The notes beneath the pieces were generated by a model. That model was not told the DNA's origin, did not search any database, and was given only the letters and a program-made list of their open reading frames with translations. 64,000 nt of DNA from Lama guanicoe. Lineage: Eukaryota. Positions 1,878-1,993 of the stretch are shown here, in pieces. The stretch lies in contig MU053304.1 in NCBI GenBank assembly GCA_013239625.1, positions 992,001 to 1,056,000 of the forward strand, given 5' to 3'. Made by a program: the position numbers and the translations under genes. Each line of letters begins with the position of its first letter. Position 1 is the stretch's first letter.

Positions 1878-1993
1878 TCACAGGGATTCAATGATGTAGT
1901 AGGCAGCTCCCAGGGCCCCCAGAGCCACAGCAACAGTCCCGAGGGCTTGGAGCACGCGAATTACGATGAGCGGAATGTTTTCTTGTAGGTCTT
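1878..1993 (-). CDS. Alternative (+1) frame of SPATA3 exon 3 encoding a putative C-terminal transmembrane anchor (E)[37 protein letters not shown]
   Basis: The frame is open from the same acceptor to TGA at 1880-1878 (end of ORF 1878..2234). It is entered by any phase-1 donor and contains an uncharged run of about 22 residues near the C-terminus. Confidence 0.55.
1888..1993 (-). CDS. SPATA3: SPATA3 coding exon 3, canonical frame (R)[34 protein letters not shown]
   Basis: Acceptor ttttgcag|AAGAC at 1994/1993, with phase-2 entry matching exon 2. The translation matches the recalled SPATA3 C-terminus (..CGSGG..SCLLHH*). TGA at 1890-1888. A strong donor CAG|GTACGT at 1850/1849 suggests a further non-coding exon. 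Confidence 0.92.

Follow-up and report, generated by a model that had tools for sequence, protein, structure and literature searches.

The last coding exon of SPATA3 from Lama guanicoe is read in two frames, one of which encodes a predicted membrane-anchoring tail

Analysis of a 64,000-nucleotide stretch of Lama guanicoe DNA (the window: contig MU053304.1 of assembly GCA_013239625.1, positions 992,001 to 1,056,000) confirmed the original prediction that the last coding exon of SPATA3 (1850..1993, minus strand) is genuinely dual-coding, with one of its two readings giving a predicted membrane-anchoring tail. The explanation that best accommodates the assembled data, and in which considerable confidence can be placed, is that this exon serves a compound locus as its shared terminal coding exon and is deployed in two frames, with exon 2 acting as a frame-switch cassette, the +1 frame being both ancestral and selected, and the resultant +1 products being tail-anchored. 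As read from the sequence, the direct joining of either exon 1 of the testis gene SPATA3 or the alternative exon 1bis to the acceptor at 1993 gives access to the +1 frame and to a hydrophobic helix of 22 residues sited three residues before the C-terminus, while inclusion of the 175 nt exon 2 imposes a one-base shift and yields the basic, Cys/Gly-rich SPATA3 tail. The ancestral reading would be the +1 frame, which would have supplied a C2orf72-like gene of amniotes with its membrane tail, and upon which the SPATA3 frame would have been overprinted in mammals, and the frame switch may serve to move the same N-terminal parts between the membrane and the nucleus or cytosol.

The shared exon and the routes into its two frames

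The shared exon, established both from the sequence and by tblastn of the two relevant classes of protein, is 144 nt in length, and extends from a first base at 1993, immediately preceded by the acceptor AG (1995-1994), to a last base at 1850, at which point the donor CAG/GTACGT is encountered (GT at 1849-1848). It had been proposed that this one acceptor leads to two tails with stops at 1888 and 1878, a proposal with which the sequence agrees exactly. When entered in phase 2, the canonical frame (1888..1993, minus), the codons of which start at positions divisible by three, specifies 34 residues before a TGA at 1890-1888; when entered in phase 1, the +1 frame (1878..1993, minus), offset by one base, specifies 38 amino acids before a TGA at 1880-1878. 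The canonical tail is identical to that of alpaca isoform X1 (P0097), and when scored alone against the Pfam profile PF15662 returned 55.6 bits (cut-off 27) over profile positions 159-191 of 191, thereby placing it within the SPATA3 family. The +1 tail is 100% identical to that of alpaca isoform X2 (P0002), a protein which scored 67.6 bits against the same profile. Both stops lie less than 50 nt from the putative donor at 1850, as anticipated, the distances being 38 nt for the canonical frame and 28 nt for the +1 frame. Downstream of the exon on the minus strand there is a single AATAAA (611-606); in the window as a whole this hexamer was observed 110 times against 33 expected from shuffles, and an (AATA)n microsatellite is located at 15333-15382 (minus).

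The junction phases of all four relevant splice sites were read from the window sequence. The coding part of SPATA3 exon 1 (7215..7599, minus), with its ATG at 7599-7597, ends in phase 1 at the donor AAA ACA G/GT. Exon 2 (4083..4257, minus), entered in phase 1 and left in phase 2, supplies the two missing bases (G+GG) and ends at TAC AG/GT with two bases over, and its inclusion results in a junction codon AG+A from which the last exon gives the Cys/Gly tail. When exon 2 is skipped, the junction codon becomes G+AA, which specifies glutamate and is followed by the hydrophobic tail. Because the length of exon 2 (175 nt) is 1 mod 3, the inclusion or skipping of this one exon sets the frame of the last.

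The other source of phase-1 entry is exon 1bis (11722..12547, minus), a C2orf72-like (DUF4630-related) exon of 275 codons recognised from tblastn, the sequence itself, Pfam and 78 relatives, and provided with a phase-1 donor (GAT G/GTGAGG). Since exon 1 and exon 1bis both end in phase 1, the direct splicing of either to 1993 gives the membrane tail, and for exon 1bis the outcome is the +1 tail ending in ESL. Database proteins of around 300 amino acids mapped by tblastn as exactly this arrangement, in which exon 1bis is joined without any intervening segment to the +1 frame of 1994-1881. Neither exon 2 skipping nor exon 1bis had been identified as a phase-1 source by the original prediction.

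In PMC7920483, a human isoform that skips exon 2 and has a frameshifted C-terminus, its abundance stated to be unknown, is attributed to Zhou et al. 2019, and an "exon 1 bis", to which the window exon at 12547-11722 corresponds, is described for both mouse and human Spata3. Fu et al. 2025 (PMC12284469) report that TMHMM returned a transmembrane region only in the exon-2-skipped human isoforms I3 (138 aa) and I4 (129 aa), that SignalP was negative throughout the human SPATA3 isoforms, that as N-terminal GFP fusions I3 and I4 were less nuclear than I1 and I2, and that untagged I3 and I4 were undetected by western blot in HeLa cells.

A number of additional features were recorded in and around these upstream exons. 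Alpaca isoforms X1 (canonical) and X2 (+1) were both 99% identical to window exon 1 (7599-7216), in which a single residue departs from RefSeq alpaca, the window having STSQR where P0002 has STSQH; the Pro/Gln-rich repeat region is 29 residues shorter in a further alpaca record (P0001, 137 aa). The start of exon 1bis conserved among mammals is MEPGAQPS at 12547; an ATG at 12808 lies upstream and in frame, and the exon 1bis ORF when read through the donor amounts to 384 aa (11654-12808, minus), an extended form matched by the 384-aa ORF P0029 with 96% identity over the query. A third reading of exon 2 (3868-4248, minus) is free of stops and continues without a change of frame into the tail at 1993-1881 (EDLQ...). 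Two rodent-like ORFs of 91 aa (P0026 and P0027) consist of exactly this third exon 2 reading plus a tail of the membrane type, and the ordinary mRNA that includes exon 2 thus contains, in addition, an internal ORF with the membrane tail at its end. In the case of Pongo abelii isoform X1 (P0010), exon 2 is connected to the +1 frame via extra pre-acceptor sequence (TFYREAPKPSFPPPPLLLCSTENLQ, ~2054-1881), a model that would represent a third route into the membrane-tail frame. An open segment at 5268-5516 (minus) resembles by eye a fragment of LINE-1 ORF2 (HKNLCTNGHGSIIHHSQKVETT).

Anatomy and distribution of the +1 tail

The original prediction envisaged an uncharged run of about 22 residues terminating three residues from the C-terminus; the +1 peptide contains a run of exactly 22 (residues 14-35 of 38) followed by ESL, with a best 19-residue Kyte-Doolittle mean of 2.12. 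Arg-13 is the last basic residue (Lys or Arg) of the peptide. The GxxxA-like spacing of small residues likewise envisaged is present in the form A22-x3-G26-x3-A30, and this conserved spacing may point to helix-helix packing. A chance control conducted on all six frames of the window yielded 218 of 49,387 stop-free 19-residue windows that were at least as hydrophobic, and an equally hydrophobic 19-mer in 41 of the 1,012 open segments of at least 38 aa. Hydrophobicity was consequently rejected as standalone evidence, and since hydrophobic 19-mers are this common by chance, the case rests on cross-species conservation. A summed Hessa-type score of +1.3 to +2.9, being slightly positive, indicated that the hydrophobicity of the segment is only moderate.

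KD19 values of at least 1.6 were located solely in the tail of each relevant protein assayed in this way (P0002, P0011, P0014, P0023 and P0008), and both of the N-termini encoded in the window proved to be hydrophilic, with a maximum KD19 in the first 30 residues below 0. The products therefore exhibit one predicted transmembrane segment, located in roughly the last 30 residues, as do members of the tail-anchored class, and, judged from hydropathy together with the published SignalP result for human, lack an N-terminal signal peptide. From these characteristics we infer that the +1 products are tail-anchored membrane proteins, which would be inserted post-translationally with the N-terminus remaining cytosolic.

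An AlphaFold2 model of exon 1bis plus the tail (mean pLDDT 49) placed ~150 disordered residues first, followed by a small alpha/beta domain folded at 165-254, which was the confident part of the model, and a tail helix at 287-315 with a pLDDT < 50. In a structure search conducted with the alpha/beta domain against representatives, 46 chains reached a Z of at least 5 and none a Z of at least 8, the highest Z being 6.7; this best value being at the tool's stated noise level, the assignment of a fold or function by this means was rejected.

A search conducted with the +1 peptide (E <= 0.01) returned 28 proteins among 164 candidates, and the tail was present in all 28; species names are carried by 18 of these, corresponding to 17 mammal species and including alpaca X2. 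The equivalent search with exon 1bis returned 78 proteins among 5,723 candidates, and added four species in which exon 1bis is joined to the tail (Hipposideros, Dugong, Microtus and Acomys). The alternative ends found among the exon 1bis relatives were exon 1bis plus exon 2 plus the canonical tail, and read-through of the donor. The description of the +1 frame as hidden and unannotated consequently has to be abandoned, in that RefSeq annotates the +1 tail both in Vicugna pacos SPATA3 isoform X2, a computed model 99-100% identical to the window, and in 20 further mammal species, and human I3 and I4 have been published. A human record designated "isoform CRA_a" (P0008, 129 aa) also terminates in the +1 tail, with 87% identity to the window peptide at 98% query coverage. 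Both readings of the last SPATA3 exon are thus already annotated, and the basic facts reside in RefSeq and two papers.

Assembled contigs of 1,068, 1,078 and 2,901 nt encode exon 1bis plus tail proteins of 306, 324 and 337 aa (P0013, P0020 and P0016, respectively), and given that 9,728 nt separate the corresponding coding parts in the window, contigs as short as these are most simply regarded as spliced RNA. Both tails are recorded within a single species for alpaca (X1 and X2) and for Balaenoptera ricei (X1 and X3). Use of the same nucleotides in two frames, as judged from recorded transcripts or protein models, was accordingly found in alpaca and Balaenoptera ricei, and has been reported for human cDNA, in support of the prediction of dual coding.

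Some variation in the ends of the tails was also noted. In P0004, encoded by a 906-nt contig, the +1 stop (window 1880-1878) is replaced by Leu and the ORF continues through the donor (YYILESLLTSPQARSPAG); the near-identical P0161, a 46-aa ORF, retains the stop. Length differences near the 5' end of the exon (homologues of ~1993-1955) consist of whole codons and preserve both frames: squirrel and marmot have lost one residue from both tails relative to the others, and chinchilla has a +1 tail that is shorter by three.

Codon-position constraint and the relative age of the frames

The DNA of the mammalian exon was inferred for eight lineages from paired tails, one for each frame, with two of the eight pairs being effectively from the same species and six from different but related species. 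For five pairs, one DNA sequence accounted for every residue of both tails; the residues left unaccounted for amounted to 1 in Delphinidae, 2 in Sciuridae and 4 in Muroidea. Since both reading frames are available in this approach, no class of substitution escapes notice. Parsimony steps were counted on a nine-taxon tree, and are given in the order canonical first (+1 third) to canonical second (+1 first) to canonical third (+1 second) positions. The resultant counts should be viewed in the light of the one-codon length difference near the exon start in the Sciuridae pair, the misalignment of the chinchilla +1 tail over the 5' third, and an ascertainment bias whereby proteins that have lost the +1 frame are invisible to a search with the +1 peptide.

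It had been predicted that substitutions would concentrate at the wobble positions of the +1 frame. Over the whole overlap, no such bias was sustained (29:15:22, p = 0.11) and the proposal had to be rejected at that scale; it was upheld within the transmembrane part, to which the effect is confined. The 5' third of the exon was flat (9:11:13), while the pre-defined transmembrane part returned 20:4:9 (P = 8e-4), and the 18-residue transmembrane core of the +1 frame (1899..1952, minus), recognised from column conservation and parsimony steps and delimited after that conservation had been seen, returned 18:2:3 (P = 1.3e-5). In the core, the canonical first position is the most variable and the canonical wobble position is nearly unchanging, such that an enrichment of canonical third positions, nominated beforehand as a finding that would count against the prediction, was not observed there (3 of 23 steps). 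The individual N/D, G/C, S/P and R/G differences originally noted were also examined: in a check that deployed the canonical tail of colobus monkey (P0056) and the human +1 tail (P0008), five of the six inferred differences from the window in the transmembrane part change the canonical residue and are silent in the +1 frame. Gap-free sequences comprised 30 of the 32 +1 tails (28 distinct, ranging from rodents to an afrotherian), and 10 of their 37 columns contain a single residue, all of them in the core; the 34 canonical tails (26 distinct) have three single-residue columns. The step pattern of the core is, as judged from the inferred DNA, the signature of a coding +1 frame, and the transmembrane core would on this basis be subject to purifying selection.

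These same data bear on whether the canonical frame is selected as well. It is conceivable, if rather unlikely, that selection acts on the +1 frame only, and that the Cys/Gly tail is a tolerated by-product of exon 2 inclusion with its conservation inherited from the transmembrane codons. Canonical columns do hold two to five residues where +1 columns hold one, and the canonical first positions of the core have changed at a similar rate (18 steps at 18 sites) to that of all positions in the 5' third (33 steps at 37 sites). However, each of the 34 gap-free canonical tails terminates at one shared stop codon, one further tail, that of Sciurus, being one residue shorter, and the base on which this stop relies occupies a third, silent position in the +1 frame. 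Furthermore, several canonical columns that coincide with silent sites of the +1 frame show little variation among the 26 distinct tails, with two residues each recorded at C20, C22, G23, S24, G25 and C30 and one at L31, and the Pfam SPATA3 profile reaches the last position of the tail.

A considerably more improbable proposition is that the +1 reading represents splicing noise, a functionless peptide resulting from erroneous exon 2 skipping that escapes NMD with its stop near the last junction. The chance frequency of hydrophobic 19-mers (41 of 1,012 open segments) is compatible with this, as are the unknown abundance of the skipped human isoform and the negative western blot for untagged I3 and I4, as stated in PMC7920483 and PMC12284469, respectively. 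Mere noise is nevertheless difficult to reconcile with the 18:2:3 distribution of steps in the core, with the 10 columns that are invariant across the 28 distinct tails from rodents to an afrotherian, with the presence of the same tail at the end of ~300-aa exon 1bis proteins, which is independent of exon skipping, and with a similar tail in monotreme and reptile relatives. Least credible of all is conservation of the exon on grounds other than coding, be it splicing enhancers, RNA structure or regulation through the 3' UTR, with the +1 frame open by accident: exonic splicing signals are common in short terminal coding exons, and this is such an exon with a downstream donor, but a period-three constraint on the first and second positions of one frame is a coding signature, and the indels deduced from protein lengths are of one codon (Sciuridae) and three codons (Chinchilla).

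The preferred reading, that of a selected and ancestral +1 frame, was examined further using a profile of 13 long isoforms, which when searched against 1.84 billion representatives gave 93 matches that included non-placental proteins combining the alpha/beta domain with a hydrophobic tail. By cluster look-up these are named C2orf72 homologs or uncharacterised proteins, and come from turtles (Malaclemys, Trachemys, Chrysemys and Pelodiscus), from lizards (Paroedura, Sceloporus and a Podarcis-led cluster with Lacerta and Zootoca members, in which the hydrophobic end is more divergent) and from the monotremes echidna and platypus; in turtle, lizard and monotreme alike, the domain is followed by a hydrophobic C-terminal stretch of the form LxxLG...G..Y. 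The platypus tail (VLTALGAAAVAAGAAGAAYYTSEH) aligns with the 22-residue placental run, and an L, a G, a later G and a Y show little or no variation across the alignment. When the long isoform of badger was compared with platypus by BLASTP, the alignment extended to the C-terminus (E = 2e-9); the corresponding alignment with turtle covered the domain (54% identity, E = 7e-16) and ended before the tail. With HMMER, the alignment obtained for Pelodiscus (profile positions 152-308) includes the tail, and the homology of the reptile tails is thus based on architecture, a short motif and this one HMMER alignment. Among the named proteins retrieved, a limited and word-based view, the SPATA3 Pfam domain was recorded in placental mammals only. 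Taken together, the bias of steps in the core and the occurrence of the same domain and tail in turtle, lizard and monotreme indicate that the +1 frame is probably ancestral and the SPATA3 frame overprinted. The +1 frame accordingly appears to be the older of the two, an aspect that had escaped the original prediction.

When assessed against the Pfam profile PF15443, which has a cut-off of 25 bits, exon 1bis of the window reached 22 bits (E = 2e-4) in a match restricted to positions 2-70 of the 155 in the profile; P0023, an ortholog, passes with 27.9 bits, and P0014 gave no match. Mammalian C2orf72-type proteins terminate in a different, non-hydrophobic C-terminus (CFxWGPWS...EELALT...NGDCE). 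By these sequence comparisons, exon 1bis is a relative of the C2orf72/DUF4630 family rather than C2orf72 itself, and lies below the cut-off for members. In P0057 (Marmota) and P0073 (Neovison), an exon 1bis N-terminus is joined to a C-terminus of the C2orf72 type, P0057 being 99.6% identical to P0023 over 258 aa. Such joins would fit a paralogous neighbour, and may be either read-through or chimeric models, or a vestige of a time when a single ancestral gene could terminate in either of two ways.

A fuller historical account, towards which we lean only slightly, is that the reading handled by databases as a minor, frameshifted terminus of SPATA3 came first, and that in mammals a testis promoter, a new first exon and the 175-nt frame-switch exon arose in an intron of the C2orf72-like gene, thereby overprinting a Cys/Gly-rich reading on the same 34 codons. 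Both readings would then have been kept, and a single decision in splicing would direct the four products generated by combining two N-termini with two tails either to the membrane or to the nucleus.

Relation to known systems and significance

Human I3 and I4 make use of the same exon, frame shift and tail as the window, and it is there alone that a transmembrane region was predicted (PMC12284469). In the accessible portions of PMC7920483 and PMC12284469, the new C-terminus of these isoforms is treated as a frameshifted or shortened end, and cross-species comparison, a link to the exon 1bis product and a tail-anchor reading do not feature. The complete mouse deletion described in PMC7920483 spanned exon 1bis through exon 3, and its phenotype is therefore not assignable to either product. 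Literature on SPATA3 and C2orf72, as assessed by title and abstract, contained no mention of two frames of SPATA3; nor was SPATA3 found among the best 15 of 364 matches in the literature on dual coding, reading frames and tail anchors, or in the supplements of PMC13247117 (9 files) and PMC13160074 (8 files). Three elements were not encountered in the literature searched, namely the connection of the tail with the exon 1bis/C2orf72-like gene, the bias of substitutions across codon positions, and an origin of the +1 frame as old as the amniotes.

With C2orf72/DUF4630 proteins (PF15443) the locus shares a related domain, and with the reptile proteins named C2orf72 homolog it shares both this domain and a hydrophobic C-terminal tail; unlike the locus studied here, C2orf72 of mammals has a non-hydrophobic end. 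A comparable arrangement is that of CDKN2A (p16INK4a/p14ARF), in which alternative first exons with their own promoters are joined to a shared exon 2 that is read in two frames to give unrelated proteins. The SPATA3 locus differs in that a 175-nt cassette also toggles the frame, the overlap comprises 34 codons at the C-terminus, and one of the two readings is a putative membrane anchor. Tail-anchored proteins such as cytochrome b5 and Sec61 beta are characterised by one hydrophobic helix located right at the C-terminus. The +1 products resemble them in having one predicted C-terminal helix, a predicted lumenal end of three residues and no N-terminal signal-like segment, but differ from cytochrome b5 and Sec61 beta in that the helix is Ala/Gly-rich and only moderately hydrophobic.

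The immediate consequence of the two readings is that variants in the exon which are silent for SPATA3 alter the membrane tail, and vice versa, and hence that both variant calls and knock-out designs at the SPATA3 locus need to take account of both frames. If the argument from age holds, the exon would provide a compact mammalian example of overprinting, in which the better-known gene name is attached to the younger frame. With a single cassette exon responsible for the choice, the locus would also constitute a simple system for the splice-driven sorting of products between membrane and nucleus.
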